The notes below the pieces were generated by a model. The model was not told the DNA's origin, did no database searches, and was given only the letters and a program-made list of their open reading frames with translations. Positions 12,352 to 63,781 of a stretch of DNA of 64,000 nucleotides are shown one piece after another. The stretch covers positions 5,717-69,716 of the forward strand of contig JAUXAU010000004.1 in the NCBI GenBank assembly GCA_030619765.1, written 5' to 3'. The stretch's first letter is position 1. Each line of letters starts with the position of its first letter. A program made the translations under genes and the position numbers. Origin of the DNA: Thermoplasmatota archaeon. GTDB lineage: Archaea; Thermoplasmatota; E2; DHVEG-1.

Positions 12352-12397
12352 CTATATTCCTATCGCAGTTTTTTAAACACCTATTTCTTTATAAACC

Positions 12398-12604
12398 CTA
12401 TTTTCTCTTGATTGCCATCCATATCATACTTGCCGACTCCCTATACGACCTTCTATTATTCACCTCAATATCATAAATGCGTTTCCATGTCCATCCGTTC
12501 CTTTCATACTCATTCTTAATTCCAGGATAGACGTAGAAATACCAGATGAGTGATAGCACAATCACGCCTATTCCTGCAAGGATCTCAATGTAGAGTTCTG
12601 GCAT
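12398..12604 (-). CDS. small membrane protein
   Basis: ORF track; one TM; upstream ATGAATAACCATC box plus an 'ATGGAATTGTAG' mini-ORF. Confidence 0.4.
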   Translation of the reverse strand: MPELYIEILAGIGVIVLSLIWYFYVYPGIKNEYERNGWTWKRIYDIEVNNRRSYRESASMIWMAIKRK

Positions 12605-12673
12605 TTTATCTCCCTGAAACTACAATTCCATAACAACTTCCTGGTAAAAGTCTGTCTTTCAGAGCAGAGATGG

Positions 12674-41565: not shown

Positions 41566-42681
41566 ATGACAGAAGGAAACGAAAAGAAAATACAAGATTA
41601 TTGTGAATATAGGCTTGATGAGGAGAGAGTGGAAGAGACCACAGTTAAACTCAACCGCCATATTTTAACTAAATTTGCAGAGACATTGGATAAACCCTTC
41701 AAAAAAGCTACTCACAAGGACATAAGGAAATTCTTAAATTCCTATGCAGATAGAACAAAAGATTTGTACATTATAGTTCTGCGGAGGTTTTATCGTTGGC
41801 TATTTAAAAGCGATGAGCTACCAGAATGCATCAAAGGCTTTAAATTGCAGAGTAAGAGGTCAAGGGCACAACAGGATAATGACATAACACGAAAGGAACG
41901 CATAGTTACTCCAGAAGAGTATGAAAAACTGCAATCTGTTACAAAAAATCCACAGTTTAAGGCAATTTTTGAAACATTATATCTATTCGGTTGTAGAATC
42001 TCCGAGCTTACGAGTATGAAAGCTACAGGTGTTGATGACGATGGAGAAATTGTAACGATAGACCTTAGAGACTCCAAGACAAAGCCCAGAGTGACAGGAA
42101 TTAATGTGCGTCCTAAGTATCTGCTTGACTGGTACAACACATATCAACCATACAAAGGTCAGAAAGACAAGCCGTTGTGGGTATCTAAGAAAGGCACACT
42201 TATAAATAAGGGAGTTGTCAACAGCGAATTAATGAGATTTAGCGATAAAGCAGAGATCGGCAGGAATATCTCCCCACACGACTTCCGACATACAGCAATC
42301 ACTAGAGCATTAGACAAGGGAATGCCGACAACGCATGTGGAAGAACTATATGGTTTTGAAACAGGCTCTGCTGTAATTTCTGTTTATGATCATAATGACC
42401 AAAAAAGTGCAATGCAGTATCTTAGAAGAGCACAGGTTAAGCAAAGACCTCCGAGCTACAAGGAATTAAAAAAGAAAGCAGACTTAATCGAAATACTGGA
42501 ACAAAAAGTAGCAACATTGACAGAGCAAGTGGATAAAATGACGAAGCATGAGACAGATGTCCAAAGTAAAACACTGATTCTCAAACCAGAAGATCATCAG
42601 GAGCTGCGGCTTTACCTCGACACTAAATCTTGGTTTAAAGAGGCAATCAAAGAAGCCGATAAAGCCGATCAAAAAAAGTGA
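41566..42681 (+). CDS. tyrosine-type site-specific recombinase/integrase
   Basis: 'RISELTSM', 'HDFRHTAITRAL', 'HVEELYGF' (R..H..R..Y catalytic tetrad order). Confidence 0.75.
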   Translation: MTEGNEKKIQDYCEYRLDEERVEETTVKLNRHILTKFAETLDKPFKKATHKDIRKFLNSYADRTKDLYIIVLRRFYRWLFKSDELPECIKGFKLQSKRSRAQQDNDITRKERIVTPEEYEKLQSVTKNPQFKAIFETLYLFGCRISELTSMKATGVDDDGEIVTIDLRDSKTKPRVTGINVRPKYLLDWYNTYQPYKGQKDKPLWVSKKGTLINKGVVNSELMRFSDKAEIGRNISPHDFRHTAITRALDKGMPTTHVEELYGFETGSAVISVYDHNDQKSAMQYLRRAQVKQRPPSYKELKKKADLIEILEQKVATLTEQVDKMTKHETDVQSKTLILKPEDHQELRLYLDTKSWFKEAIKEADKADQKK

Positions 42682-42876: not shown

Positions 42877-43281
42877 ATGATTTACACAATTGGATATACC
42901 TCACTGGGCTTTAGGATATATCAAATAATCCCCAAACTTAGGCAAATAGCAGATGAAAAACGAGCAACAATTGTTGATATTCGGTCAAGACCATACGGTT
43001 TGGTAAATCTAAATCAACTAAAGAGGGAACTGGGCGCAAGGTATGTTTGGGTTCAGGAATTGGGTTTTCCGCAATATAAAGAGAATGCAGAGCGGGTAAA
43101 CCTTCCTTATAATAACATAATACTCATGTGTGCTGAAAAGGACTATAAATGCTGTCATAGGGCTGATGTAGCTAAAATATTAAGAAACATTCGCAATGAT
43201 AATGAGGTTATAGTTCATCTTAATAGTGCGGAGGTCGATGGAAATACAAATAATCAAAAGAAGTTGGCTTTGGGTTGTTGA
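42877..43281 (+). CDS. DUF488-family protein
   Basis: 'MIYTIGYTS' start typical of DUF488. Confidence 0.5.
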   Translation: MIYTIGYTSLGFRIYQIIPKLRQIADEKRATIVDIRSRPYGLVNLNQLKRELGARYVWVQELGFPQYKENAERVNLPYNNIILMCAEKDYKCCHRADVAKILRNIRNDNEVIVHLNSAEVDGNTNNQKKLALGC

Positions 43282-43947
43282 CACTTATCCTGTTGAACAG
43301 GGGCTTTGCACCTAAAGTCCATTTTGCACCTAAAGTCGAAATTTACAGGAGTGGTGTTTTACAAGAAGAATTTAAGATAAAGCTGATTATAGAATATTCA
43401 AATTTAATGGAATATTTTTATGAATAATTTTTTTGAAGATTTTGTTTTTCAATTAATCTTCATCTATGCCGTTAATGAATTCGAGGACTGTGTCGATGCT
43501 TTCGCTTATCTGTTCTGCGACTTCATCCTCAATTTCATCCAAACACAAATGCATTCACCTCCTGTAATATCATTCTTTTATTTATATAGCGGTGGGTCTA
43601 CCGCTCAAAAGAATTTACAATAAGTCTATCCCTCACTGTTCTCATTGAAAATTCTCTTTAAAAATAATAATATGATCAACTTATATATAAACTTTATTTT
43701 TATTAATAGTGAAAATAAATCTATTGTTTTATGTCTACTCTTAAAAAACGAATAAATTGAATCAAGCTCAGCAACCCAATAATAAGTGTTATCCCACCTT
43801 CTATCTGGTATCCTCTGACTATGAGTCCTATTCCTCCAAATGTAAAGAATCCAGCAATAGCACCTAAGATATATGTTAAAGGTCTCATATATGAGATAGA
43901 CAAATGGCTAAATACTAGATAAAAGATTTGACAATAGAGGAATATGT

Positions 43948-44517
43948 ATGGAACCCAAAGAAGTTGTTAGATATTTAACATCACTAATTGAAACAAGAAA
44001 GGAAATTTTTAAAATTGCCTATTGTAGGGGAAAGGATAAAGGAAAAAGAATAGAATCCTGGATTAACACAGAAATGTTGGCAAAACTGTTGGAATTAAAA
44101 GAAAAAAATGAAGTTGAAGAAGTTGAGGGGGAACATGTATATCATATTCCAAAGGGAACATCCCCAAGAAGAAGCTATGAGCATTGCGATTTATGGTGGT
44201 TCATTAATAATGAAGAACACTGGTTAGAAGTAAAAACCCTTGTATTCCACCGCAATTCTGATGGGTTAAAAGATAAATATAAAAAAAGAATCAAAAAGGA
44301 TTTGAATAAAGTTGATAGATTGAGACCACCATATAATTTCTATCACCTATTGATGATTTTTGATGATGAATATTACTATACGGGTGAATGGATGGAAGAT
44401 GTATATGCTATTTATCAAGATTACAAAATGAAGAAAGAAGATAAATGGAAATTTGATGTAAATCAAAGAAAAACAGTTTATGCATTTTTGCATTATAAAT
44501 CGGGAGATAATCAGTAA
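43948..44517 (+). CDS. hypothetical protein with a PD-(D/E)xK-like motif
   Basis: 'EHCDLWWF...EEHWLEVK' (D...ExK). Confidence 0.3.
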   Translation: MEPKEVVRYLTSLIETRKEIFKIAYCRGKDKGKRIESWINTEMLAKLLELKEKNEVEEVEGEHVYHIPKGTSPRRSYEHCDLWWFINNEEHWLEVKTLVFHRNSDGLKDKYKKRIKKDLNKVDRLRPPYNFYHLLMIFDDEYYYTGEWMEDVYAIYQDYKMKKEDKWKFDVNQRKTVYAFLHYKSGDNQ

Positions 44518-44583
44518 CGAATTGGATTTAAAAACTTGGTATCTTAAATAATAGATAAAAGATTTGAAAATGAGGGAGAAATT

Positions 44584-45117
44584 ATGAGCAGAAATTATGT
44601 AGAAGAACTCGTTTCAGAATATTATAAAATCCATGGCTATTTTGTGATGAATAATTATTGGTTTCCTTTTACTAGTGAAAGAAAAAGAATTGTAAAGGGA
44701 AAAAAACAAAAATTTACTGCTCAAAGTTGGACAGATATTGACATAGTTGCAATCAACTCAAAGGAGTTGCTACTTATTCAAACTAAGGCAATAATTAATA
44801 CAAAAAAAGTTGCAGAAAATATTATAAAATTTTTCAGGAGAGTAGATGCTTTCTTAGCTAAGGGTTTAGCTTTGGATCAAAAATCAGAAATCAAATGGTG
44901 GAAAAAGAAACGCACGATAAAAAGAATTGTTATATATGAGACTGGTATCCCAAGTTATAATCGTATTGTTGAAAATGCTGGAATTAAAACTATTGATTTT
45001 AAAGAGATCTTGGAGGACATCATTAAATATATTTCAAAGAAAAAAGGCGTTAAGGAAGGAAATCCGATCATGAGATTGATAACTTATTTAAACAACAAGA
45101 AAATCGTAAAGATATGA
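44584..45117 (+). CDS. Hjc/restriction-endonuclease-fold (PD-(D/E)xK) protein
   Basis: 'EELVSEYYKIHGYFV...TDIDIVAINSKELLLIQTK' resembles the Hjc E...D..(E/Q)xK core. Confidence 0.4.
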   Translation: MSRNYVEELVSEYYKIHGYFVMNNYWFPFTSERKRIVKGKKQKFTAQSWTDIDIVAINSKELLLIQTKAIINTKKVAENIIKFFRRVDAFLAKGLALDQKSEIKWWKKKRTIKRIVIYETGIPSYNRIVENAGIKTIDFKEILEDIIKYISKKKGVKEGNPIMRLITYLNNKKIVKI

Positions 45118-45156
45118 AAAAATATTAGTTTTAGATTTGAAAATGGAAGAGGTAAA

Positions 45157-46194
45157 ATGGTTGGTTTTTTCGATAAGAAACAATTTTATGAATTTATATT
45201 TCCTATTGAAAATTTAGAGATTACCAAAAGAAGTTTTACAGTTGGCAAAGTAAGGTTTTTTGAATATAATAATTATCAATTTAATAAGATAATGAAAAAA
45301 ATTAGAATGAAAATAGATCAAAACCAATATTATAATCAACGTCCACAAGCAAAGAAAAATGTAATTGCCACATTGAGAAAATATTATGAATTAAACCTTA
45401 ACGATAATGGCAATAAAACATGTGCGATTGCTGAATCATATAGTCATATTGATGACGCAATTTTACAAACATTGCATGATGTGAAAATCGCTGTCAATGT
45501 TTTAAAACTATATCGTTATCAAAACGATGATTTTTACAGAACTTATTTTGGTATTCAAGGAGAAATAATTCCTAGGAATGTGCGAGCAATTCTCGCTAAG
45601 GCATCTCGATCAGAAATGTATCGTCCTTCCGTTGAAACATATGGAAGTAGTTATCCTTTTAGAGTTGATGACCGTAGAATTAGTTTCATGGAAAATAATG
45701 GTTTTAATATCCTTGATAAAATGTTGAAAAAAAAGAAAAGTCAATTTAATGCATTAGACAGAAGAATTATTTCAGCAATAAATTGGTTTGGCGAGAGCTT
45801 TAATTCAAATATTGCTATAAGAGAAAAGTACAAATCAATATATCAGACTAAGCGAATAGGGACAGGGAAACCTAAGAATTATGGTCTTTCTGAACCTGAG
45901 AGATTAGTTTTTTGTATTACTGCATTGGAAGGATTATTTCTATTCAGTAACAGAGAAAAGCATGAAAGAGTTGGTGAGAGAATTTCAAAAATTATCGGAA
46001 GGAACATAACTATAAGATATGAAAAGCTGTATAAAATCAGATGTAGTATTGTTCATGGTAGCAGGAGTTATGTAGATAAAAACGAACTTGATGACATTTT
46101 TGGGTTGACTAGGTCAGCAATAATTGTATTAATTAGAAGAAAAGGTAGATTAGGTATTAAAAACGTACCAGAACTTAGAAATTGGTTAAAATGA
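45157..46194 (+). CDS. hypothetical protein with a candidate C-terminal HEPN motif
   Basis: 'KIRCSIVHGS' fits Rx4HG. Confidence 0.3.
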   Translation: MVGFFDKKQFYEFIFPIENLEITKRSFTVGKVRFFEYNNYQFNKIMKKIRMKIDQNQYYNQRPQAKKNVIATLRKYYELNLNDNGNKTCAIAESYSHIDDAILQTLHDVKIAVNVLKLYRYQNDDFYRTYFGIQGEIIPRNVRAILAKASRSEMYRPSVETYGSSYPFRVDDRRISFMENNGFNILDKMLKKKKSQFNALDRRIISAINWFGESFNSNIAIREKYKSIYQTKRIGTGKPKNYGLSEPERLVFCITALEGLFLFSNREKHERVGERISKIIGRNITIRYEKLYKIRCSIVHGSRSYVDKNELDDIFGLTRSAIIVLIRRKGRLGIKNVPELRNWLK

Positions 46195-46387
46195 AAATAT
46201 AAGTGCAAAGCTAAAAATATTTCTTCTCCTGTTACTTTTGAATTTTTGTGCAGAATTAGTATTTTTTGTGCAAAAACGATTATTTGTGCAAAGCCTAAAA
46301 CCTTTGAAAATTATATCGATACATTGGTTAGTTAGGTTTTTAAATAAGGAGTAGGTTACAAGAATGTAATTTTGGAGGAGGCAAAGG

Positions 46388-48868
46388 TTGGAGGATATAG
46401 GTTCATCAAAGAAATTAGGAGATTTTATCAATAATATTGAAAAATATAGGAGATTAAAACTTATTGGATTTGTTCTAACTCCCATAGTTATTGGCTTTTT
46501 TATTTTAAGATATTGCAATATTAAATTAAATGAACTAGAAAAAGAAATAAGAGTTGAAATACAACAAGAAATGGAAGAGATAAGAATCACACATAGAAAT
46601 GTTATAATAGATGATACTTACCTTATATATTCAAAAAGAACCGACCTTCTAAATTATTATGATGCTCGTATAAGATGGATAACCCAATTATCATCTTATA
46701 AAAATTGTTTTAGCTCCGGATTAATCGGGTTAATAGAGGAATCAGAGAAGGAAATAAGTTGTATTAGACTCAAAATAGATAATTTCAACAAAGAATTTGT
46801 CAAACGTAGAAAAAATGAATATCAATATTTGTTTGATAAAGTACCTTTTCCATTAGATGAAAATCAGAAAAATGCAATTATAATAGACGACAAACATAAT
46901 CTTGTTGTTGCAGGTGCAGGATCTGGTAAAACAGAAGTTCTCATCAACAGAATAGCTTATCTCATTGAAAGAAAACCTGATACAGTTAATCGTAAGAAAA
47001 TACTTGCTTTAGCCTTCCAGAGAGATGCAGCAAGACAAATGAAGAATAGATTGAAAGAAAGATATAATCTTGATGTTGAAATTCGAACTTTTCACTCTCT
47101 TGGACTTAATATTTTAAAAGAAATTGATGAGAGATATAAATTATATGGTGGGGATAATCATGAACAAAAATCTATTCAGCTTATATCAAAGTTAGTTAAC
47201 GATGCTAAAAAAGAAAGAGAGTTTCAGAACCATCTTATTAATTATATGAAATGGGTAGGAACATCAGAAAAGACAAAAGATGAAGCTGACTTTAAAGAAA
47301 AAGAAGAATTCTATGAATATATGAGAAATTTAGAACTGACTGCTTTAGATGAAACTAAAGTTAAAAGCCATGGAGAACTTGAAATTATTAATTTTTTCTT
47401 AACCAACAAAATAAACAATAAGAATATCAAGGTTTTATATGAAGACTATGCTGAATGGATGGAATATGAAGATCCGGATAAGTTAAAACATACTCCTCGT
47501 CCTGATTTTTATTTGCCTGATTACGATGTATATATTGAGCATTGGGCAATTGACGATGATGGAAGTACATGGGAAAATGATTATCTTCGTACAATGAAGA
47601 TTAAAAAGAAGAAGTTTGCAGAGCATAATAAAACATTGATTGAAACAACATATGGGGAATTCAAGAACAATAAAAACTTCATTGAATTATTAAAGGAACG
47701 ATTACTAAAAATATTACATGAGAAATATCCAGATAAAGATTTTACAATTACACCAATTGAATATGAAGAACTTGTTAAGAAGGTATGGGATGAGTGTAAA
47801 GTATACATTGATAATCTGCCAAAACACATAGCTAACTATATTAAAAATGCAAAAACCTATTATCTAACTCCAGAAAAAATAAGTGAGCGATTATCCAAAG
47901 AGAAGTGGAATAGAGAACAAATAACCTTCTCGCAAGTAGCTTTAAAAATCTACGAAGATTATCAGAATGAGCTCAAATCTTCAGGATATATTGATTTTGA
48001 AGATATGATAAATATTGCTATTGAAAGCTTAAAAAATAGCCCTGAATTATTAAAAGATAATTATGACCATATCCTTGTGGATGAATATCAGGACATTAGT
48101 CAGCAAAGATATGAATTAATAAAAACCATCGTGGAGAAGAATCAAAATTGTAAGTTGTTTTGCGTTGGTGATGATTGGCAGAGTATCATGAGTTTTGCAG
48201 GTTCAAATCCTGAATTTTTCATTAATTTTGATAAATATTTTGACCATCCTGCAAGAACTGATTTAACATTTAATTATCGAAGTATAAAATCAATCGTTGA
48301 AACTGGAAATGAAATAATCAAGTATAACGGTGACCAACAAATATCAAAAAAGGTCTATGCGAATAATGAGCAGATAGTACCTATTGATGTTTTTTATCTA
48401 ATGCATAAGGAAAATTATAAATGGAAATATTATAAACAGATGGTAGAGGACTGTATTGACCGTATTAAATACCATTTAGATAACGGATATGAATCCGAGG
48501 ACATTATGGTCTTAACTCGAATTACTAAAAATCCTATATATAAGGAATTTTTTTATGAGTATGTAAACAATAATAATATTTCATTTTCCTCGATACATAA
48601 GAGCAAGGGTTTACAATCAAAGATTGTCTTTTTACTTGATATGAAAGAAGGTGTGTATGGGTTCCCATGTCAACTTCATAATCCAGTAATATTTGAACCA
48701 GCTCGTATGGAGGTAATATCAGATAAGGTCGTTGAAGAAAGACGATTATTTTATGTTGCTGTTACACGAGCTAAAGAAAAACTATATGTTTACTCACAAA
48801 AATCTAATCCCAGCAGATTTTTATCTGAAATGGGAGAATATGTTAATCACCAGAATATTGGTTATTGA
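46388..48868 (+). CDS. UvrD/PcrA-like SF1 helicase with an N-terminal TM/coiled-coil region and a ~370-aa insertion carrying a nuclease-like motif
   Basis: Walker A 'VVAGAGSGKTEV', motif II 'ILVDEYQDIS', motif VI 'VAVTRAKEKLYVY'; insertion has 'PRPDFYLPDYDVYIEHW'. Confidence 0.75.
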   Translation: MEDIGSSKKLGDFINNIEKYRRLKLIGFVLTPIVIGFFILRYCNIKLNELEKEIRVEIQQEMEEIRITHRNVIIDDTYLIYSKRTDLLNYYDARIRWITQLSSYKNCFSSGLIGLIEESEKEISCIRLKIDNFNKEFVKRRKNEYQYLFDKVPFPLDENQKNAIIIDDKHNLVVAGAGSGKTEVLINRIAYLIERKPDTVNRKKILALAFQRDAARQMKNRLKERYNLDVEIRTFHSLGLNILKEIDERYKLYGGDNHEQKSIQLISKLVNDAKKEREFQNHLINYMKWVGTSEKTKDEADFKEKEEFYEYMRNLELTALDETKVKSHGELEIINFFLTNKINNKNIKVLYEDYAEWMEYEDPDKLKHTPRPDFYLPDYDVYIEHWAIDDDGSTWENDYLRTMKIKKKKFAEHNKTLIETTYGEFKNNKNFIELLKERLLKILHEKYPDKDFTITPIEYEELVKKVWDECKVYIDNLPKHIANYIKNAKTYYLTPEKISERLSKEKWNREQITFSQVALKIYEDYQNELKSSGYIDFEDMINIAIESLKNSPELLKDNYDHILVDEYQDISQQRYELIKTIVEKNQNCKLFCVGDDWQSIMSFAGSNPEFFINFDKYFDHPARTDLTFNYRSIKSIVETGNEIIKYNGDQQISKKVYANNEQIVPIDVFYLMHKENYKWKYYKQMVEDCIDRIKYHLDNGYESEDIMVLTRITKNPIYKEFFYEYVNNNNISFSSIHKSKGLQSKIVFLLDMKEGVYGFPCQLHNPVIFEPARMEVISDKVVEERRLFYVAVTRAKEKLYVYSQKSNPSRFLSEMGEYVNHQNIGY

Positions 48869-48943
48869 TATGAAGTTGAAGATTTGGAGGAGGAAAAGGA
48901 AATGAATAACAATAGGGGATTTCTCGCAACAGGTATAATACTA

Positions 48944-50380
48944 TTAATTCTCGGAATATTTTTCGATTTTCTTTAAATCTTTGATTTCAATGTATTTATT
49001 TTTATCAGAACTTGCATCATTGTATTTCATGCCAGTAGCAAATCCAAAATTAAATAGTAAATCTTCTATCTTGCCGTGATAATGGCTATAAGCATTTAAA
49101 CTTCTATGTGTTTTTAGTTCTTGTTTTAGTTTATTATCAAGTTTTTCTATCAATTTATCCTTTTCTTTGGTTGGTATTGCTCTAAACATTAAAATCAATT
49201 TCTTGATTGATTCGATTTGTTCCGCATGATAGGAGTGAATAGCAATTAAACCTAATTCGTGATAATAAATTCGGTTGTCCGGTAAATCAGACATTAAATA
49301 AACTAAGAATTTGAAGAATTTAAGATTACCCCATACCCAAGTGATATTTACTAATCCAGTTGTATAAATTGAACGTAGTCTAGATACATCTGTAGTTGAG
49401 GTTTTAACCAACTCATATCCAAGAGCTGTTATTTTATATTCACTTCTGTTATATTTTTGTATTAGTCCTAATCGTTCTAAATAATTCTTATGTTGACGAA
49501 TAAACCAATCTCTTTTTTGTTCTTCTGTATATCTATGTTTATATGTTATACCTGCCTGTTTTATTATAGAATTGACGTATCTAATGTCTTTTCGACTCGT
49601 TGAGAATGATGCATATCCGTCACTTTTGTATTCTTTACTTTTGATAATTAATTCTATAATTTTTCGTAGTTCCTTTAATTTATCTGTATTAATTATTCCA
49701 TGTCCTGGTAATAAATACCAACCACGCCATTTTTCCAAATTTACAATTTTTTTATTACTTTTAATATATTTTATCCAATCATCTACAAATGTGAGGATTG
49801 TTTTACTATTCTCACCGAAATTATAGGTTCCATCCTCCTTATATTTGATTTTAATATGTTTGGTTTTCTCAACATCTTTGTAATTGTCAATATATTCATC
49901 ATCAATCAATAAAGATTTTTCACTTTCCCATAATTTCCTAAAATATTTTATTTGCTGTTTAATGATCGTGGTTTTTCCCTTAATTATAATGTTTGCTTCA
50001 ATGTTTTTTTCTAATGCACCTTTACTTATATTTGATGATCCAGTAATGGTAATTATATTTGGTTTGGAATGAAATATCCATAATTTTGGATGATATGTTT
50101 TTTGTGGATCTCGATATACTTTGAGTATCACGCCCATCTTCAATAATTCTCTAAGAGCAGTACTCTCAGAGATATTCATATCTTCTCCAAATAATAATTC
50201 AATTTTTCCTCCATCCTGAATAAACTTTTGAAATGTAGGCTTTAAATAATCAACACCAGACCTCCTGACAAATGAAATTCCCATTTGAACCTTTTTCAGA
50301 TTTTCTATTTCAAAGCAATCTATGATTGCTTTTAATGTTGTTTGCCCATTGTCGTTAAAAACAAATACTAAATCCTTCAC
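48944..50380 (-). CDS. PLD-family (Nuc/BfiI-like) nuclease-domain protein
   Basis: 'YHPKLWIFHSKPNIITITGSSNISKGAL' is a degenerate HxK..D..GSxN motif; convergent with the helicase. Confidence 0.45.
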   Translation of the reverse strand: MKDLVFVFNDNGQTTLKAIIDCFEIENLKKVQMGISFVRRSGVDYLKPTFQKFIQDGGKIELLFGEDMNISESTALRELLKMGVILKVYRDPQKTYHPKLWIFHSKPNIITITGSSNISKGALEKNIEANIIIKGKTTIIKQQIKYFRKLWESEKSLLIDDEYIDNYKDVEKTKHIKIKYKEDGTYNFGENSKTILTFVDDWIKYIKSNKKIVNLEKWRGWYLLPGHGIINTDKLKELRKIIELIIKSKEYKSDGYASFSTSRKDIRYVNSIIKQAGITYKHRYTEEQKRDWFIRQHKNYLERLGLIQKYNRSEYKITALGYELVKTSTTDVSRLRSIYTTGLVNITWVWGNLKFFKFLVYLMSDLPDNRIYYHELGLIAIHSYHAEQIESIKKLILMFRAIPTKEKDKLIEKLDNKLKQELKTHRSLNAYSHYHGKIEDLLFNFGFATGMKYNDASSDKNKYIEIKDLKKIEKYSEN

Positions 50381-50578: not shown

Positions 50579-51007
50579 TTATGACCAAACTCCTTTTCTT
50601 TTTGATAAAGAAATCAGGATTTCAATATCTTTGTCATCAATTTCAAGGATATATCCATTCATATGTTTACTCGCTTTTAATAATTTGGAAGAAATGTTTG
50701 GATGTTGTTTTACTAATTTCAACGGAACTGGATTTTCTAATAGACATGTATTTGACAAATCAATTATATATTTTTTACCATTATCATATACTTCAGAAGT
50801 CACGATAGATTTGGCTACAAATGCAGATTTAAACATTTTTACTAGAGTGTTTTCTTTTTTAAGATAATGGAAAATAATGTCACCTTTTTCCACTCGGCTC
50901 ATTATATAAAAAATCTTTTTATTTCGAAATGATATTAAATCTTCCTTACCTTCTAGCTTTTTCTCCAGAGAATCTGTGCCACATTTAACTTCAATCCAAG
51001 TTGTCAT
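50579..51007 (-). CDS. EVE/PUA-like domain protein
   Basis: About 140 aa; 'W...VKCG...GDIIFHY...VAKSIVTSEVYD' pattern resembles an EVE domain. Confidence 0.3.
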   Translation of the reverse strand: MTTWIEVKCGTDSLEKKLEGKEDLISFRNKKIFYIMSRVEKGDIIFHYLKKENTLVKMFKSAFVAKSIVTSEVYDNGKKYIIDLSNTCLLENPVPLKLVKQHPNISSKLLKASKHMNGYILEIDDKDIEILISLSKRKGVWS

Positions 51008-52203: not shown

Positions 52204-53148
52204 ATGGTCAATGAAACGATCATATCCGCAAACAATAATTATTCTGAAGAAAAAGAAATAGGCGAAAATAGAGTTGATCCAAGAAATAAACTAAATGAAT
52301 TAAACGGTAGAAACTGGATTAAAGCAACAAAAAGCATATGGTATAGCAGACCCCCTCGACGGGACGAACTAAAAGAACAACATCCTGCCACATACGCAGA
52401 AAGTGATATTGAGCAATTGATTAAATTTTTTACAAAAGAGGGACAAACTGTATTAGATCCTTTTCTTGGATCTGGTAGCACCTTAATTGCTTGTCACGAT
52501 ACTAAAAGATTTGGAACAGGAATTGAACTCATTGACAAATGGGTTGAAATTTCACAGGAAAGAGTTAAGCAAGTTGAAACTCAGAAGACATTAGATTCAT
52601 TTGCCATAGAGCAAGAAACAACTCAAAAAATCATTCATGGTGATGCTGAAGGGGAATTGAAAAAAATAGAATCAGAATATTTTCATTTCATTGTTACCAG
52701 TCCGCCATATTGGGGGATTTTAAATAAACCACTGGATCATAAGACAAAAAAAGAAAGAGTTGGGAAGGGTTTAGATGTTAGATATAGTGAAGATGAAAAA
52801 GATTTAGCTAATGTTGAGAAGTATTCAGATTTTTTAAAAGCATTACAAAAAACCTGGAAAGCATGCTATAGAGTTTTGAAGAAAAATAAGTACATGTGTA
52901 TAGTAGTTTCTGATTTCAGGCATAAAAATAGATTTATTCTTTATCATGCTGATATTACAAAATCTATGGAAGAAATTGGATTTATTCTAAAGGGAATGAT
53001 AATTTTAGTTCAGGACAGCAAAACACTCTATCCTTATGGGTATCCTTTTGAATATGTGCCAAACATCCATCACCAAAATATTTTAATCTTTAAAAAGGAT
53101 GAAAATAATGAAAAATTAAAGGATATTTCAAATGGTAAGAGAGGGTGA
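52204..53148 (+). CDS. DNA N4-cytosine/N6-adenine methyltransferase
   Basis: Motif I 'LDPFLGSGSTL', motif IV 'VTSPPYWG'. Confidence 0.75.
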   Translation: MVNETIISANNNYSEEKEIGENRVDPRNKLNELNGRNWIKATKSIWYSRPPRRDELKEQHPATYAESDIEQLIKFFTKEGQTVLDPFLGSGSTLIACHDTKRFGTGIELIDKWVEISQERVKQVETQKTLDSFAIEQETTQKIIHGDAEGELKKIESEYFHFIVTSPPYWGILNKPLDHKTKKERVGKGLDVRYSEDEKDLANVEKYSDFLKALQKTWKACYRVLKKNKYMCIVVSDFRHKNRFILYHADITKSMEEIGFILKGMIILVQDSKTLYPYGYPFEYVPNIHHQNILIFKKDENNEKLKDISNGKRG

Positions 53149-54694
53149 AGTTTGTTGCGGTGTTGTTAAATGGCTTGTTTCTAAGCAACAAGAACTAGAT
53201 CGAGAAACAGGTAATAAAAAACATCTAGCTTTTTGGGCAGATAAAAAAACCTTTGATGGAATAAAGAGGCATTTAGGGATTTCAAGTACTTCTAATTTAG
53301 ACCATACAAAAACTTCAATCTCTAACAATTTCAATGTCGATTCAGACCTACTGGAGAGGTGTTGGCTTGAAATTGAAGATATTAGGATCCCTTATTCTAC
53401 TTCAAGTGATGTTCTGCCAGATTTTGTGGCTCATATATTTGACACATCTTCAAATATTTCAGAGACATGGGCTATTGAGGCAAAACCTAATGATATAGCC
53501 TCCATTCAAAGAGGTTATTTCCAAGTAATTTCTCATGCATTAGGTGTTTCAAAATCATACATTGCCATTCCTAGTGATTTAGAGGAGGCTGTTAAAAATC
53601 TTTACTATTACAATTATGGTATATTATTATATGATCCCACAAATCATACAATTGAAGAAAAATCAAAGCAAATCATTACAAGAGCCAATCCAGAAATTAT
53701 GGGCTACCTAACTAATTATCTGAGAGATTATCATTTTAAGAATCCGTCACATTTTCAAAGTCCATATGGCATTCCTTTTAGAGTTTCAAGAATATCTATT
53801 AGTGCTCGGGACAGCCTTTTGGTGTTAGCATTAAAACTATATTTTGATCATAATACGGATAATATTACCAACAGGGAGCCAAAAATTTTTGATTTGAAAA
53901 GAATGAGTTTTATTGATAAAAATGAGAACATAACTGATGATGCAAAATTCTTTTTTGAGATACTAGAAAAATATATCGAAGAGAAAATTACTTATCGACC
54001 AAGGGGAAGAACAAGAGCAATAGTAAATTATTTTATTAATAGCATTCCTTCTGTACAAGGAATGAATTTATTATATGAGGGGAATCCTTTTGGAAATTTT
54101 GTTTCGAATATTTTACACATGTTCTTAATATCGAACAATAGCTTGAAAGAATTAATTGGATGGATTAAACAAGCGACAGAAGAATCTGGAGGGGAGCACC
54201 CTATTTTTTCACATGTATTTACTATAGGGCTTAAAAGAAACCCCCTTTTACTTAGAGATATGATGCTTTCTCCTCATTTAAACACTACCACTCCTACATT
54301 CCATAATCCTCTAACAAGAGGAGGGAATGTTTGTGTAAATTGTGATCATCAGGATAAGAAAGGATTTTGCTTTTGTACAAATATTAGTTTAGTAAATCAT
54401 GTTGATTTTCAGAAGAAATATGGTGATTTCATTGAGATCTGGAGAAAACATGTACCTTATGAGTTCTTTACTGATCCTGCCTTACACAAACGATTTATTA
54501 AAATTCATACTTATTCAAATGGAAGAGAAGTTGAAATATTAGCTCCAGGATTTGTCAAATGTCTGATTCATACTGATACAAATAAAACAACAGGTATACT
54601 AAGACATTCTAAAATCCTAGGTAAAGATGTTAGAAGCGGTATAAAAGCAGAGCTTTGCACTAGATTTGATCCTTATTATTTAGAAACCACATAG
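53132..54694 (+). CDS. large hypothetical protein, translationally coupled to the MTase; PD-ExK-like motif and a C-terminal Cys cluster
   Basis: 'LPDFVAHIF...ETWAIEAK'; 'CVNCDHQDKKGFCFC'; ATG overlaps the MTase stop. Confidence 0.3.
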   Translation: MVREGEVCCGVVKWLVSKQQELDRETGNKKHLAFWADKKTFDGIKRHLGISSTSNLDHTKTSISNNFNVDSDLLERCWLEIEDIRIPYSTSSDVLPDFVAHIFDTSSNISETWAIEAKPNDIASIQRGYFQVISHALGVSKSYIAIPSDLEEAVKNLYYYNYGILLYDPTNHTIEEKSKQIITRANPEIMGYLTNYLRDYHFKNPSHFQSPYGIPFRVSRISISARDSLLVLALKLYFDHNTDNITNREPKIFDLKRMSFIDKNENITDDAKFFFEILEKYIEEKITYRPRGRTRAIVNYFINSIPSVQGMNLLYEGNPFGNFVSNILHMFLISNNSLKELIGWIKQATEESGGEHPIFSHVFTIGLKRNPLLLRDMMLSPHLNTTTPTFHNPLTRGGNVCVNCDHQDKKGFCFCTNISLVNHVDFQKKYGDFIEIWRKHVPYEFFTDPALHKRFIKIHTYSNGREVEILAPGFVKCLIHTDTNKTTGILRHSKILGKDVRSGIKAELCTRFDPYYLETT

Positions 54695-54741: not shown

Positions 54742-55011
54742 ATGGCAATAGAGCATAAGTTATTTGGAACTCAGCAGAAATATGGTTATGTATGGTGGAA
54801 TGCAAAGGATAATGATAAATTCAAGAAAGTTCTACCAAAGGAAAAATTTGTGTTATATTTTCATGAAAAAAAAGTTGGTGAACGCATGGTTGATTGGAGT
54901 AGACGTCGATTTATTCTTGGAAAGAGGGTCATGCGAGAACATTTGAAAAAGAACGATACCATAAAAATTTCTAATCCAACTGGAAATAAAGTTGTCATAA
55001 GCAAAAGATAA
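54742..55011 (+). CDS. hypothetical protein
   Basis: ORF track; followed in another frame by a copy of the Zn-ribbon mini-ORF (55011..55115). Confidence 0.3.
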   Translation: MAIEHKLFGTQQKYGYVWWNAKDNDKFKKVLPKEKFVLYFHEKKVGERMVDWSRRRFILGKRVMREHLKKNDTIKISNPTGNKVVISKR

Positions 55012-55180
55012 TCCGTAAAATCTGCGATGTAAACGAAACAGATAATCCTGATGGGATTTGCGATGATTGTAAGTTTTCGATAATTAGTAATGATGATATA
55101 CCACCAGATATATAACCAAAAAATTCCGTGATTTTGCTATATCGATTTTATAAGGAATATTCCTAATTTTAATTATGAAA

Positions 55181-58158: not shown

Positions 58159-58413
58159 TAATTTTTAGACAACCATTTTAATTCTAATGAACAATGTCCA
58201 ATAAGTATCAAAATCACAATCAGTTTTCTCAGTATGTGCTTGTATAAAAGATCATTGAAATTACTCCTGTTGAATAGGAGGTAGAAAGCAGGTTTTTTAA
58301 AGAAAAAGATGGTTATTCAATATTAATCACATATTTTCCGGAATATCATCTGAACTTATAATAGATACTTTGCAATCATCGCATATCCCATTGGAATTAT
58401 TAAAGTCTATTAT

Positions 58414-59235
58414 TTATGATTTTACCAGTTCACGTAACAAGATTTTATCCTTCTCTGAATTCAATGCATGCATTTTTCTATGACAATTTGGGCAAAGGGC
58501 AACAGTATTATCGATTGCATCATCCCCACCCTGTGACAACCATTGAATATGATGACTCTCGAGAAAGGGTTCACCGTCTTTTTTGCTGAAAGGAGCAGCA
58601 TTCTTGCATAATTGACAAAAACCGTTTGCTCTACGTTTGACAAATTCTACAACATCTTGATTTCTATCGTATTGTTTGGAAATAACGTGTCGGACTCCAC
58701 ATGTTCTAGGTGCAGACTGGACTTTTTTCCATAATGATTCGTCTGATGATTTTTTTGCTTGTCTCTCTCTTATAGTTAGTTTTCTATGAAAAACGTCTTC
58801 AGTAATAATTGAGGATGTTGTATGGTCAATAAGTTTTAATGGAAAAATCCACACTTTGCGAATGTATTGTTTTACATCTGGTTGTTTTTCAACATAAGGT
58901 TTAGTAGCCAACATGACCCTACCTTGATAAACATATCTACCTGGGTCAAAAACCTCAAATAAAAATACATCCACTCCGTTAGTTTGAGATTCATTTAATG
59001 TTCTGTTTTGTGCAAAAGAGAGACTTTGGTCACCTGTAAGTCCCATACCTGTATAATGAAAAACATCATTCTCCCATCTATCCTCATAAATAGATTTAGT
59101 ATGATCTGAAACAATGACAAGACAGTTTTTTCTTCTACTTCTTCTCATCCCTCCTTGTGGACTACATTTGAATATCCGACAAATATCATCATTTCTTAGT
59201 ATATCACCTTGTTTTAGTTCAGGGTCAAACTCCAT
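58414..59235 (-). CDS. SRA-like domain + HNH endonuclease (candidate modification-dependent type IV restriction enzyme)
   Basis: C-terminal 'CQLCKNAAPF...ESHHIQWLSQGGDDAIDNTVALCPNCHRKMH'; N-terminal 'HYTGMGLTGDQ...AQNRTLNESQTNG...GRYVYQGRV' parallels SRA 'TYTGSGGRD...TAEQ..KLTNTN...YDGIYKV'. Confidence 0.5.
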   Translation of the reverse strand: MEFDPELKQGDILRNDDICRIFKCSPQGGMRRSRRKNCLVIVSDHTKSIYEDRWENDVFHYTGMGLTGDQSLSFAQNRTLNESQTNGVDVFLFEVFDPGRYVYQGRVMLATKPYVEKQPDVKQYIRKVWIFPLKLIDHTTSSIITEDVFHRKLTIRERQAKKSSDESLWKKVQSAPRTCGVRHVISKQYDRNQDVVEFVKRRANGFCQLCKNAAPFSKKDGEPFLESHHIQWLSQGGDDAIDNTVALCPNCHRKMHALNSEKDKILLRELVKS

Positions 59236-59328: not shown

Positions 59329-60108
59329 TTAAGGGAATTTATACTCCAATCTTCCTGTTTTGTTATACTGTTCAATGAGATATAAAGCAGATTTTGGATG
59401 AACTTGAATTGAGCCACAACCAAGAAATTCCTGCAATCGTCTTCCATTACTGTATGATTGAATAAAGGGTTCTAACTTCTTTGGTATACTTGGCTTATAT
59501 TTTCCATTCAGTCTCTGTATCCCTACAAATGCAAATTTAGGAGAATTTTCAGATACCACTATTTTGTTTAAATCATCGAATAATGCTTCATAATAATCTA
59601 AACCAGCGGCGATTAAGACAATATCTTCTGAATTTGAGATATTAACTAACTCATGAATTGATTTAGGGTGAGAGGTCTCAATTATACCAGTATTACTAAG
59701 AAAATTCCACCACTGTTTTTTTACTTCGCCTTTATCTGAGCCATAAAAATAGTCCTGGTTATTTACTGAGTCATCAACTCCCGATTTGAACGTAGCATGA
59801 TAACCAGATATTTTTTCTTTGGCATTAATAAGACCAAATCCACAAGATACTATCCATAATTGACTTGGTCCATTAATTCCTCTAAATGCCTCCATTGATG
59901 CATTCCACATAGAGCCTTTGTATATACTCGATGCTTCAGGTAAAAATGTTGATGAATTCATATGATTGGTGAGAGTATTTTTCCATTCTTTAAATAATTC
60001 TTCAGTATCATTTCTAATTTCCTTTTGAAGTAAATTATCAATGGCATTCTTAACCGAAGGTCCTTCATAATTTTTGCTACCAACACAGGTGACTATTAAA
60101 TGAAACAT
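59329..60108 (-). CDS. hypothetical protein (third gene of an uncharacterised operon)
   Basis: ORF track; no family recognised. Confidence 0.4.
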   Translation of the reverse strand: MFHLIVTCVGSKNYEGPSVKNAIDNLLQKEIRNDTEELFKEWKNTLTNHMNSSTFLPEASSIYKGSMWNASMEAFRGINGPSQLWIVSCGFGLINAKEKISGYHATFKSGVDDSVNNQDYFYGSDKGEVKKQWWNFLSNTGIIETSHPKSIHELVNISNSEDIVLIAAGLDYYEALFDDLNKIVVSENSPKFAFVGIQRLNGKYKPSIPKKLEPFIQSYSNGRRLQEFLGCGSIQVHPKSALYLIEQYNKTGRLEYKFP

Positions 60109-60122
60109 AGAATAATCCCCCC

Positions 60123-60530
60123 CTAATGCTCCAATTTGTCCAGGATTAAATAATACCTTAATCCTCTACCAACTTTTCTTGATTCGATATAAGGCTGCTT
60201 TGAAATGAGTGTGAATGAAACTGCGGTATGCCTATTTTGCCCACCATGTAAATCCTTCTGCAAGTATCCTGCTGAAATATATTTTGGATTTTGTAAATCT
60301 CTGAATATATCTACAAAATCTCCCGTTGGTATATCCTCAAAAGGAAGTTTGCTATCCTCTCTTTCAACACGAATATGGGAGCCTGTTACACCTTTTACCC
60401 AAAACCGTTTCCTTTGAGAGTTCGTATACATCTCGGTAGCATTTTCACGGATTTTCCGCTCAACAAAATCTTTAACATCGTTCCAAAGGCGTTCATTATC
60501 AATATTTCTTTCCATTTTATCTGCTCCCAA
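60123..60530 (-). CDS. hypothetical protein (middle gene)
   Basis: ORF track; overlaps the upstream gene by 14 nt. Confidence 0.4.
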   Translation of the reverse strand: MGADKMERNIDNERLWNDVKDFVERKIRENATEMYTNSQRKRFWVKGVTGSHIRVEREDSKLPFEDIPTGDFVDIFRDLQNPKYISAGYLQKDLHGGQNRHTAVSFTLISKQPYIESRKVGRGLRYYLILDKLEH

Positions 60531-61233
60531 CCCATTCTTTTGTTTTAGTTATAGCGTTTGAGATGGTTATTTTATCCTTTTCATTTATTTCATCATCCAT
60601 AAGATGCTGCACCAACCATAAGCCACTTTCCTTAATTTTCTGAATGGGCGAATAATTTCCCAACCAGTTATTCGATGGTCTGCAAAAAGCACAACTTGCT
60701 ACAGTCCCAATAAGTGAACTTTCTAACCCCGTGCCACCCATTCTTTTTATCTGACTATCCATCATGATGAATTTAAAGGAAAAATTCTCCCTTAATATCT
60801 GCGTGACCTCTGATTCAATTGTCTTCTCTTTCTGAATATCTCGAAGATGCCCATAACGCTCTCGATTCTCTCTCGGTGTAAAATCTATCTCCCAGATTTC
60901 CAAATAATCATCCTTCTCTTTATTTAACAATGACCGCCCTATATTTTTTCTAAAGATGCTTCTATCCTTTGGTGCCGCTTTCATCTGATTAAAACTCATT
61001 TTCCTATCGTTAAACAAAAAGTGGTCGTTTATCCTGCTTCTAAAATTGTTCCCTTTGTGCGTTCCAATTCTAACCATTCTTGGTAAATTGCCACCATGTC
61101 CCCAATTTTCTCCGTCCTCATAGAAAAAGTAGATGCCGTTTTGCGGTAAATCCTCTAAACAGAATGGATATTTAAAAATCGGCAATGCTTTTAATTGACG
61201 ATGTAGCCATTCACAACTATTCGTAATTACCAT
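60517..61233 (-). CDS. GIY-YIG-like nuclease-domain protein (first gene)
   Basis: 'NGIYFFYEDGENWGHGGNLPRMVRIGTHKG...R...H' resembles the GIY-(x10-17)-YIG core. Confidence 0.35.
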   Translation of the reverse strand: MVITNSCEWLHRQLKALPIFKYPFCLEDLPQNGIYFFYEDGENWGHGGNLPRMVRIGTHKGNNFRSRINDHFLFNDRKMSFNQMKAAPKDRSIFRKNIGRSLLNKEKDDYLEIWEIDFTPRENRERYGHLRDIQKEKTIESEVTQILRENFSFKFIMMDSQIKRMGGTGLESSLIGTVASCAFCRPSNNWLGNYSPIQKIKESGLWLVQHLMDDEINEKDKITISNAITKTKEWVGSR

Positions 61234-61627: not shown

Positions 61628-61735
61628 TCACATATTTGGTAGAATATCATCATCACTAATTATTGAAACCTTACAATCATCACAAATCCCGTCAGGGTTA
61701 TCTGTTTCGTTTGTGCCACATATTTTGCAGATCAT
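61628..61735 (-). CDS. 35-aa zinc-ribbon mini-protein MICKICGTNETDNPDGICDDCKVSIISDDDILPNM
   Basis: Found by hand; CxxC-x10-CxxC; degraded paralogous copies at 58327..58413 and 55011..55115. Confidence 0.35.
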   Translation of the reverse strand: MICKICGTNETDNPDGICDDCKVSIISDDDILPNM

Positions 61736-61748
61736 ATTTAACCAAAAA

Positions 61749-62720
61749 CTAGTCTAATTTTCCTATATACTTTTTAGTAGCCTTCTCTAAACTAATCATA
61801 GCATCTATCATTTTATCTTGTATATCGTCCCATCTGTCTTCATCTTTTAATCCTATTTCATCAAATGTATAAGAAATTCTTGATGCCTTCCTATCATCAA
61901 GCTTCTCCCACAGTAGTTTTTCACCAAATTCTTTTTCAATTTCTCCCTTATGTTTAAACAGTCGATCAAATCTTTTTTTATTAATTAAGACATCCTCGTC
62001 CTCTTTTCCTTTATCAAGATAGATCTCAACTCTCCCATTCTTATACGTTACTTCATAAATATATGCAATTCCTGATTTACCTGCTCCTGTTGCTATCCAA
62101 GAATATTTACTTGGGGAAACATTAGAAAACAAATTAGTTTTATCTTTAGATTTCGTTAATAATTTTGTCCAGAAATCTTTTCTAAGTTTATATCTTTGTG
62201 CAGATTCTATCCTCTCTTCACCAAGTTGTTTTGCTTCAATAGTTGGACCGGTTACAATAGTAAATAGAGGTGCAGCTATCGGTTGATCTCCGATTTTAAT
62301 TGCCTCAAGTTTAACCAAATAAAATAATACGTCTCCAGGAGTATATTTGTTTAACCATTCAATAACCTGAACATGTTCATCTCTTGGTTCTTTTGTAATC
62401 CATATTGCAGTGTTTGCTTCGAGATTTATCATGTATGTAAGTATCTTTCCTAAATGATCATGATCTGTTTTTTCTAACTGATTCTCGATTATTACTTTAT
62501 TGTCATTTTCATCCTCAGCAAAAAGGTCTAATTTAAAAGGACCAACCTTTTCCTCTCTTTTAACAACGTTAAAATTTTTGTCAAGGACATCGTTAAGATA
62601 ATCAATATTTTCTTCTAACCATTTTGTAAATTCCTTATCTTCCTTTTTCCAAATTTCTCTTAAAGGAACTTTCTTGATTTTTCCAATTGGATTTTCAAAT
62701 TCCATTTCTTCCTCCTCCAA
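61749..62720 (-). CDS. PD-(D/E)xK-family (DUF4268-like) nuclease-fold protein
   Basis: 'FKLDLFAEDENDNKVIIENQLEKTDHDHLGK' (D..E.Q...D..HLG signature). Confidence 0.45.
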   Translation of the reverse strand: MEEEEMEFENPIGKIKKVPLREIWKKEDKEFTKWLEENIDYLNDVLDKNFNVVKREEKVGPFKLDLFAEDENDNKVIIENQLEKTDHDHLGKILTYMINLEANTAIWITKEPRDEHVQVIEWLNKYTPGDVLFYLVKLEAIKIGDQPIAAPLFTIVTGPTIEAKQLGEERIESAQRYKLRKDFWTKLLTKSKDKTNLFSNVSPSKYSWIATGAGKSGIAYIYEVTYKNGRVEIYLDKGKEDEDVLINKKRFDRLFKHKGEIEKEFGEKLLWEKLDDRKASRISYTFDEIGLKDEDRWDDIQDKMIDAMISLEKATKKYIGKLD

Positions 62721-62761: not shown

Positions 62762-63781
62762 TTATCCCAGAAAAGTATATTCTTTAGTTATTGGGTCAAT
62801 TGCAGTTTTTTCTCCAGTTATTCCTGCATCATAACCAGGAAATCCATAGTCACCAGCAGTAGGGTCTAAGACCACACAGTTAACACCATCTATCCTGTAC
62901 GAGATTATTTCTTCCTCCCCAAATAATTCATAAAATGAAGGTCTAAAATAAAACTCAATAAACACACTAACAGATGCATCTTGCCATTTCTCGTTAGAAA
63001 GTATTATCCCACCATATTTATCCAAGTAATGACAGGTGTCGGTAACTGTTAATATATTCTCACATTCCCAGTCAGCATATTGAATAAAAGTTTTACATTC
63101 ATTCAATTTATCAAAATCATCCCTTGAAGGAACTACATATAAATGCAATGGCTGATTTGAATCAATACTGTAACTTATATTCAAATAATTAAAATAGTCT
63201 TTCAATGACGAACCATTTCCTCCATAATACCAATTATGACCTCCCTCAAGAACAAAGGATTGCTCATGAGTTTGCCTTATACTCTCTCCCAAATCATTTT
63301 CAACTTGTTCTAATAGTGAAGGTTCAACATAGTTCCATAGCTCTCTTGCATTAATGTCATATGCAAGAGCATAAGCATGGTCTTCAGTTAATACTAAATA
63401 TGCTTTAATACCGATATTTTCTAATAAAGAGATTAATAGTATTGAGAGGTCTTCACAATCCCCTCCTCCAATATCTATAGTCTCTTGTGGGCTTTGGATG
63501 AGTTCAACTCCAACGGGGTCACTTAGATAATTAAAGTTCTCTACGATGTGTCTGTATAATGCATTTACTTGACACTCTCTATCACCAGCAGTACAATTCT
63601 TAACGATAGAATTTGCATATGCTCTTAGGTCAATATCATTTAGAACAATTTTGTTGAGATATGGTTCTGCACCTTGAAGCACTGGGTCTACTTCAATCTG
63701 TTCAAATAACTCATTACATCCACTCAATCCAACAGATAAGAGCAGAACAGCTATTCCTATTCTCACTAATTGTTTTTTCAT
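62762..63781 (-). CDS. transglutaminase-like lipoprotein
   Basis: Signal/lipobox 'LLLSVGLSGC'; 'GGGDCEDLSILLISLL' transglutaminase-core cysteine. Confidence 0.55.
   Translation of the reverse strand: MKKQLVRIGIAVLLLSVGLSGCNELFEQIEVDPVLQGAEPYLNKIVLNDIDLRAYANSIVKNCTAGDRECQVNALYRHIVENFNYLSDPVGVELIQSPQETIDIGGGDCEDLSILLISLLENIGIKAYLVLTEDHAYALAYDINARELWNYVEPSLLEQVENDLGESIRQTHEQSFVLEGGHNWYYGGNGSSLKDYFNYLNISYSIDSNQPLHLYVVPSRDDFDKLNECKTFIQYADWECENILTVTDTCHYLDKYGGIILSNEKWQDASVSVFIEFYFRPSFYELFGEEEIISYRIDGVNCVVLDPTAGDYGFPGYDAGITGEKTAIDPITKEYTFLG

Follow-up and report, generated by a model that had tools for sequence, protein, structure and literature searches.

We analysed a 64,000-nucleotide (nt) stretch of the genome of a Thermoplasmatota archaeon (assembly GCA_030619765.1, contig JAUXAU010000004.1, positions 5,717 to 69,716 of the forward strand; hereafter the window), in which positions 43948-50380 contain two small open reading frames (ORFs), a gene for a 345-amino-acid (aa) protein, a gene for an 826-aa UvrD-like helicase with a nuclease-like insertion and, in convergent orientation, a gene for a 478-aa protein of the PLD family. 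This interval is probably part of a mosaic, low-GC island that begins at an integrase gene and is composed of independent single-gene modules, and not one multi-gene system. The five ORFs have the coordinates and strands that were given in an initial annotation of the sequence:

43948-44517, + strand: ORF189 (189 aa), from the ORF list
44584-45117, + strand: ORF177 (177 aa), from the ORF list
45157-46194, + strand: gene for the 345-aa protein, from the ORF list
46388-48868, + strand: gene for the 826-aa helicase, TTG start, from the ORF list
48944-50380, - strand: gene for the 478-aa PLD protein, convergent with the helicase gene across a gap of 75 nt, from the ORF list

The surroundings of the helicase gene were compared across 84 loci (0.75 Mb), which were compiled from 80 metagenome loci retrieved with an alignment of the insertion domain as the query and from five further loci that carry close orthologues and come from a named genome, other assemblies or a sequencing run. 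In none of the 84 loci did tblastn detect a homologue of the 189-, 177-, 345- or 478-aa protein, or of three other proteins encoded near the cluster in the window (an EVE-domain protein, a 239-aa protein and a 520-aa protein), and phmmer searches against the called ORFs of these loci found no homologues of the window neighbours either. The initial annotation had suggested that the genes combine as one system and had proposed a search for the 345/826/478-aa trio in other genomes. The trio was not recovered: a 345-aa or 478-aa homologue was present in 0 of the 84 helicase loci, and the helicase was found in none of the four loci of 345-aa relatives and none of the three loci of PLD relatives. 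With the synteny negative, a partnership of the helicase with the small ORFs or with the 345-aa protein was rejected.

When the ORFs of the window and of the 84 loci (743 in all) were clustered all-versus-all, no neighbour family occurred in more than 7 of the 85 sequences, and the 135 nearest neighbours of the helicase (67 non-redundant loci) were spread over 117 Pfam families (E ≤ 1e-5). The recurrent neighbours were N6/Eco57I-type methyltransferases (7 loci), RecQ/DEAD helicases (6), Fic proteins (5) and, in 4 loci each, an unknown 443-aa protein, a small PLD protein with zinc ribbons and VirB4/TraG-like ATPases. The helicase orthologue of Methanolobus halotolerans stands alone among purE, purC, LSM and Ile-tRNA-synthetase genes (locus L084), two orthologues lie amid defence-type genes (L081 and L083), and homologues in six loci (L173-L178) are carried on viral contigs. 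A scan of genome contigs with the full-length helicase alignment matched the generic Walker A and motif II regions and recovered mostly ordinary UvrD/PcrA loci; it yielded a sole close orthologue (L001, 46%), and loci L002-L004 may share the architecture. The VirB4/TraG-like ATPase (1033 aa, with PrgI and TraC/TraG P-loop domains) is encoded at 11664-14765 of L144, 5256-8357 of L145 and 15781-18867 of L162, directly downstream of the helicase gene in L144 (a Woesearchaeota contig) and L145 and a few kb from it in L162, which hints that some members of the helicase family ride on conjugative-type elements.

At the left end of the cluster, a repeated leader and a cassette shared with an unrelated region were identified:

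43909-43950 and 44545-44586, + strand: 42-nt promoter/5'-leader-like repeat, directly upstream of ORF189 and ORF177; 79% identity
44544-45157, + strand: 615-nt cassette carrying ORF177; 95.4% nucleotide identity to positions 1967-2580 of another metagenome contig (L191)

The leader has the form TAAATA…AAAGATTTGA…GAGG…ATG and looks like a common archaeal promoter/leader; its 27-nt core occurs in exactly 2 copies in the window and in 0 of 100 shuffles. The second contig shares with the window solely 44544-45157, the flanks on both sides being unrelated, and the cassette begins on the left with the 42-nt leader and ends on the right at the opening base of the start codon of the gene that follows. 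The presence of the ORF177 cassette between unrelated flanks, together with the duplicated leader, points to single-gene units that move independently. ORF189 and ORF177, each with its own leader, would constitute a first module, in which mobility as a 615-nt cassette is shown for ORF177. Both ORFs had been assigned to the PD-(D/E)xK nucleases, and D…(E/Q)xK strings are indeed visible, namely the PD-(D/E)xK-like HCDLWW…HWLEVKT in ORF189 and the Hjc/NERD-like DIDIVA…LLLIQTK in ORF177. The assignment did not extend to the fold, where support consists of a NERD match below the cut-off (E 0.045) for ORF177 alone; ORF189 had no match in Pfam, PADLOC, NCBIfam, PHROGs or PDB.

The GC content falls from about 0.35 to about 0.29 across roughly 43-56 kb of the window, and the following gene, given as context, marks the left edge of the low-GC region:

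41566-42681, + strand: tyrosine recombinase (integrase); Pfam Phage_integrase, 3.9e-19

The genes flanking the island encode the archaeosine tRNA-guanine transglycosylase TgtA (553 bits, cut-off 350), a non-discriminating aspartyl-tRNA synthetase, RtcB and FtsZ. By their sequence matches, TgtA, the aspartyl-tRNA synthetase and FtsZ identify the host as an archaeon.

The 826-aa protein is a UvrD-type helicase of superfamily 1 (SF1), with Pfam matches to UvrD-helicase (1.7e-51, in two separate stretches) and UvrD_C (6.9e-18). Its Walker A motif starts at residue 175 and its motif II (DEYQD) at residue 565, with approximately 390 residues between them, and the motifs of the helicase motor are intact. 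The nearest solved structures by sequence are PcrA, UvrD1, UvrD and Rep. The best curated match in NCBIfam is DNA helicase IV (NF008276; 9.2e-87, 292.1 bits), a profile that outranks those of PcrA, Rep and UvrD, in agreement with the earlier description of the protein as unlike a repair UvrD or PcrA. The protein has in common with helicase IV (HelD) the SF1A core, a conserved stretch immediately ahead of Walker A and a C-terminal '(E/K)G.(D/Y)GFP' motif, and some members of its family are labelled 'DNA helicase IV' by JGI. However, its score lies below the equivalog cut-off (543), its N-terminus is unrelated to that of HelD and has no Helicase_IV_N match in Pfam, and it possesses a Vsr-like nuclease domain and a hydrophobic N-terminal anchor. 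Nor are the two proteins collinear: the alignment to Escherichia coli HelD falls into two blocks (121-279/164-306 and 521-812/395-670; window protein/HelD), indicating that about 150 residues of the window protein are absent from helicase IV. The 826-aa protein is not an equivalog of helicase IV. A role in RNA polymerase recycling, as for HelD/HelR, was considered and rejected, the HelR match being no better than 2e-8. In a database search, 1,431 homologues were found at E ≤ 1e-10, the best 120 of which are 43-57% identical to the query over 68-100% of its length and measure 720-1156 aa. The named homologues are mostly archaeal (Methanosarcina, Methanolobus, Methanococcoides, Methanoperedens, ANME-2, Woesearchaeota, Nanoarchaeota and Heimdallarchaeota), and a few bacterial lineages are represented as well.

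Two features set this helicase apart from the helicase IV profile:

47261-47707, + strand: Vsr-like PD-(D/E)xK domain, residues ~292-440, between motifs Ia and II, at the 1B position of UvrD-type helicases
46460-46516, + strand: predicted transmembrane/membrane-anchor segment, residues 25-43, LIGFVLTPIVIGFFILRYC, with basic residues on either side

The insertion contains the string PDFYLPD…YIEHW and is among the best-conserved regions of a 30-sequence alignment of the family, in which S327, E330, N335, Y351, E352, P372, D373, F374, E384, H385, W386, K406 and E419 are invariant. Profile searches found no Pfam model and no PDB sequence match for it. The predicted structure of the insertion folds confidently, with an alpha-beta-beta-beta-alpha-beta core as in the PD-(D/E)xK fold, and the fold matches of the model include RAP domains (9.5-8.1), Vsr (9.1), the DUF559 protein NGO0050 (8.8) and TnsA (8.6), followed by Bax1, VRR-NUC, Hjc and many type II restriction enzymes. 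A restriction-endonuclease-like insertion between Walker A and motif II, as first noticed from the letters of the sequence, is thus borne out by the model at the level of the fold. Conservation extends to the metal-binding or catalytic-type positions of the helix and of strands 2 and 3, with E330, D373, E384, H385, K406 and E419 among the invariant residues; nearly all of these six are kept in helicases of 27-29% identity from IMG/VR viral contigs. This invariant set of acidic, histidine and lysine residues argues for an active nuclease. The domain differs from Vsr, DUF559 and I-Bth0305I-type endonucleases in several respects: sequence identity is ~11-12%, the motif is E-H-W instead of (D/E)xK, the conserved Lys being located on the helix that follows, and those enzymes are free-standing or have the domain at a terminus, whereas in the window protein it is embedded inside a helicase. 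Full-text literature searches, which did not target the architecture by name, returned no description of such a helicase-nuclease.

The N-terminal segment has a 19-residue Kyte-Doolittle mean of 2.09 from residue 25, so that the transmembrane segment reported in the initial annotation stands as a hydrophobic segment on this scale. Values above 1.6 were obtained for 21 of the 30 family members, with a conserved Pro/Gly pattern (GYxLxPxIxGxFILK), and the shortest members, including those of Nanoarchaeota, Woesearchaeota and Auribacterota, are without a hydrophobic N-terminal segment. Pfam searches with the isolated N-terminus gave nothing meaningful.

Taken alone, the 826-aa protein would constitute a module in itself, as a membrane-tethered, ATP-driven helicase-nuclease. 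The helicase would move on one DNA strand while the N-terminal anchor holds the enzyme at the membrane, and the nuclease may nick or cut at the fork made by unwinding, to which it would be delivered by its position, since the 1B domain of UvrD-type helicases contacts the single-strand/duplex junction at that place. The contexts of the family, in islands, near VirB4-like genes, on viral contigs and among housekeeping genes, suggest a role in the conflict between host and mobile DNA, in which the protein might serve either in defence or in a mobile element's own DNA processing.

Ten proteins in and around the cluster were scanned with PADLOC (E ≤ 0.1), which returned generic GajB/RTasHel helicase matches and one weak DrmC match alone, and the view that the cluster resembles several established systems and fits none of them exactly was thereby upheld. 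Among the best 25 of the 45 models matching the helicase, all are generic UvrD-type, RTasHel or GajB models and none is an Nhi model. The GajB matches, up to 2.1e-52, recall Gabija, but they come in 2-4 fragments and do not reach the strength of the helicase IV match; because the helicase IV profile scores higher, we attribute them to generic SF1A similarity. None of the ten proteins matched GajA (OLD-family ATPase with TOPRIM nuclease), and Gabija is excluded by its absence. Hachiman and DISARM are likewise excluded, because no match to HamA (DUF1837 nuclease) or HamB, or to DrmA (superfamily 2 (SF2) helicase with DUF1998) or DrmB, was found among the proteins scanned. HamB is moreover an SF2 protein, whereas the window helicase is of the SF1 UvrD type. 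The likeness to DISARM consists of the PLD protein with its weak DrmC match (1.5e-5), a nearby methyltransferase and a helicase; the helicase, however, belongs to SF1, and the DrmC model matched by the PLD protein has 153 positions, the protein being roughly twice as long. Of the defence genes that encode a helicase-nuclease as a single protein, Nhi and Hhe have an Upf1-like SF1 motor and Hna an SF2 motor, with nuclease domains that are terminal (N-terminal in Nhi). They resemble the window protein in combining a motor and a restriction-fold nuclease in one polypeptide and in their variable, often island-like neighbourhoods. They differ from it in that its motor is of the UvrD/helicase IV type, its nuclease is internal (292-440) and it has a membrane anchor.

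At E ≤ 1e-3, the family of the 345-aa protein comprises 579 representative clusters; most of its members are ~440 aa long and have an additional ~100 residues at the N-terminus. Among 46 diverse members (19-73% identity), E258, Y292, R295 and H300 are invariant and form the motif E…Y..Rx4H(G) in an all-helical C-terminal part. The initial annotation had named the protein a candidate HEPN protein, and the invariant E…Rx4H motif agrees with this, whereas a HEPN profile match is lacking. The family has no match in Pfam, PADLOC or PDB, Pfam searches at E ≤ 10 with the 46 members gave no recurrent family, and the lone weak match to a HEPN profile was that of one member to HEPN_STY4199 (E 0.057). 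An AlphaFold2 (AF2) model of the protein built from 6 sequences was poor (predicted local distance difference test, pLDDT, 46.5), and Foldseek found nothing significant with it, HEPN entries (2hsb, 8xdj and 4nqf) appearing at E 1.7-3.4. The protein is a candidate stand-alone HEPN-like RNase by its motif, and as a second module it might act as a toxin or RNase-type effector. Its five closest relatives are located in four different defence-type neighbourhoods, which include MmeI/Eco57I with PDDEXK_1, SLFN_AlbA_2 with PglZ/SNF2/methyltransferase, and Upf1-like with DUF559 genes.

The convergent PLD-family gene was confirmed by a PLDc_2 match well above the Pfam cut-off (3.8e-13; 49.9 bits, cut-off 27). 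Residues H97, K99, G114-S115-S116-N117 and E128 of the PLD motif (HxK…GSxN…E) are invariant in the family, and the protein consists of an N-terminal PLD domain (~nt 49928-50215) and a conserved C-terminal domain of ~300 aa with no known fold. Its gene forms part of a leftward gene set and faces a divergent methyltransferase gene:

50579-51007, - strand: EVE-domain protein, 142 aa, upstream of the PLD gene; Pfam EVE, 1.2e-4, 22.5 bits (cut-off 23)
52204-53148, + strand: N4/N6 DNA methyltransferase; Pfam N6_N4_Mtase, 7.1e-31
53132-54694, + strand: 520-aa ORF, with a 17-nt overlap at the methyltransferase stop; motif PDF-x19-IEAKP

In the order of the minus strand, the 239-aa ORF and the EVE-domain ORF precede the PLD gene. 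EVE is a modified-base reader fold, and a faint EVE match is also present in the McrB gene upstream of a PLD relative (locus L089). The 520-aa ORF had no family match in Pfam, PADLOC or NCBIfam; its motif and the gene overlap make it likely to be the cognate type II endonuclease of the methyltransferase, perhaps a novel one. Relatives of the 478-aa protein were absent from viral contigs, and the three usable contigs carrying them contained McrBC with an MmeI-type methyltransferase (L089), ResIII with an Eco57I methyltransferase (L090) and an N6_N4 methyltransferase with a DEAD helicase (L091). The best solved-structure matches of the family profile are SauUSI (7clg, 2.6e-17) and BfiI (2c1l, 2.5e-8), and the flanking of the relatives by methyltransferases and SF2 helicases recalls the M-R-N/H systems such as CglI and NgoAVII (PMC4267653). 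The PLD protein, with the 239-aa and EVE-domain proteins, would represent a further module, a restriction-type nuclease tied elsewhere to methyltransferases and motors.

Several points weigh against a set of fully independent modules. A motor NTPase gene lies no more than two genes from the 478-aa family gene in all four known contexts, and is adjacent to it in three (the motors being ResIII in L090, a DEAD helicase behind the methyltransferase in L091, McrB in L089 and the helicase in the window). In addition, a ~250-aa Nuc-like PLD protein with C-terminal CxxC zinc ribbons is encoded directly beside helicase orthologues in four loci (L142, 9478-10218; L143, 3257-3765; L151, 2049-2831; L156, 8124-8906), in three different relative orientations. 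The contexts sampled are few (four loci for the 345-aa family and three for the PLD family), a search for att-type direct repeats at the borders of the island found none, and the defence role of the helicase is suggested by a mixed context. A functional coupling of some kind between helicase and PLD protein is a minor rival to the modular reading. In its explicit form, the helicase and the convergent PLD protein, perhaps with the methyltransferase, would be an ATP-dependent restriction-like module akin to a split SauUSI or CglI/NgoAVII enzyme, in which the SF1 helicase takes the place of the SF2 motor by which PLD domains are normally brought together on DNA; this we regard as improbable. SauUSI (7CLG) is a type IV enzyme in which a PLD nuclease is fused to an SF2 motor (PMC7913695), and in the three-gene CglI and NgoAVII systems the PLD nuclease is the R-subunit and the SF2 helicase-like ATPase a subunit of its own (PMC4267653; PMC7913695). 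The 75-nt spacing of the gene ends fits such a module, as do the PLD genes of L090 and L091, which are likewise convergent with their motor operons, and the window methyltransferase, which shares 46% identity with the methyltransferase encoded next to the PLD relative of L091 (tblastn, L091 3156-4214, 1.3e-100). However, the synteny counts given above speak against it in both directions, the motors beside the PLD family are of mutually unrelated kinds, a diversity that makes a specific interface less plausible, and convergent orientation implies separate transcripts. The helicase, moreover, has a nuclease domain of its own and occurs alone in L084, and the methyltransferase is translationally coupled to another putative endonuclease, the 520-aa ORF. 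The small PLD proteins are unrelated in sequence to the 478-aa protein, and in three of their four loci the helicases are close relatives of one another (78-87% identity).

It is also unlikely, in our judgement, that the 826-aa protein is a housekeeping recombination/repair helicase-nuclease that corresponds in archaea to helicase IV or to AddA/RecB-type enzymes and is in the island by chance. Helicase IV is its best curated match, it has the GFP motif at the C-terminus and the segment preceding Walker A in common with E. coli HelD, several genomes of Methanosarcina, Methanolobus and Methanococcoides carry members of the family, and RecQ-type helicases are among the recurrent neighbours; the M. 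halotolerans orthologue amid purine-biosynthesis, LSM and tRNA-synthetase genes would also suit a housekeeping role. The spread of the family is patchy, however (Methanosarcinales, DPANN, Heimdallarchaeota, Omnitrophica and Clostridia), its copies on viral contigs and beside VirB4-like genes and its Fic, HNH, Eco57I-type and PLD neighbours would not be expected of such an enzyme, and the region around the window copy is low in GC and flanked by an integrase gene. A membrane anchor is likewise unexpected in a repair helicase.

Further genes of note surround the cluster. A DUF488 protein is encoded between the integrase gene and the cluster (42877-43281, + strand), with weak matches to the PADLOC candidate-system models PDC-M19A and PDC-M45B, and DUF488 proteins also adjoin helicase orthologues in two other loci. 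Beyond the cluster, the gene at 58414-59235 (- strand) codes for a protein of 273 aa whose C-terminus has an HNH motif (HHIQWLSQGG…CPNCH), and further defence-like or unannotated ORFs follow, including those at 59329-61233 (- strand) and 61749-62720 (- strand). The right-hand limit of the variable region is probably at 63.8 kb or beyond.

A zinc-ribbon mini-ORF of ~35 aa (MICKICGxNETDNPDGICDDCK[FV]SIISxDDIPP…*) was found directly downstream of unrelated island genes and on the same strand. The window contains one copy at 61631-61735 (- strand), behind the gene at 61749-62720, a truncated copy at 58330-58401 (- strand), behind the HNH gene, and a copy without an ATG at 55008-55112 (+ strand), ~300 nt downstream of the 520-aa ORF. 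Elsewhere, copies are located behind a helicase orthologue (L083, 4829-4939), behind a relative of the 345-aa protein (L087, 2781-2885) and behind a 247-aa ORF (L081, 14197-14259). The mini-ORF could be a cassette-end marker or a small partner protein shared by these genes.

A transglutaminase-core, lipoprotein-like gene at 62762-63781 of the window (- strand) shares ~60% protein identity with L081 8896-9963 and L082 1083-2150. In assembly GCA_030601705.1 this gene is directly upstream of the helicase orthologue, and in the window it is 14 kb away on the opposite strand; the shared gene and its different placement indicate that the two organisms appear to be related and that the region has been rearranged. 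Far from the island, a segment of ~230 nt at 12375-12605 of the window corresponds to L081 13143-13373, with ~70% identity in translated comparison on both strands. No Rfam family covers it at the gathering threshold, and it could be a small conserved gene or RNA.

Reading the five genes as a new multi-gene defence system is not upheld by these data, which is worth knowing before they are cloned jointly. The helicase family is, on the evidence of the homologue searches, widespread in archaea and extends to some bacteria and to viral contigs, and its more than 1,400 homologues are annotated merely as 'UvrD-helicase domain-containing protein' or 'DNA helicase IV', in spite of a modelled, conserved endonuclease domain and, usually, an anchor. 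We tentatively propose, as a possibility that falls short of the likely, that they form a new class of stand-alone, membrane-tethered helicase-nucleases that attack DNA at or crossing the membrane or, in the case of mobile elements, process it, and that in some lineages they may recruit a neighbouring PLD protein. The 345-aa protein represents an uncharacterised family with a HEPN-type motif and with relatives in defence-type islands. Finally, the window offers a view of single-gene cassette shuffling in an archaeon, in which the exact cassette borders and the recurrent zinc-ribbon mini-ORFs could help to define how archaeal defence islands are assembled.

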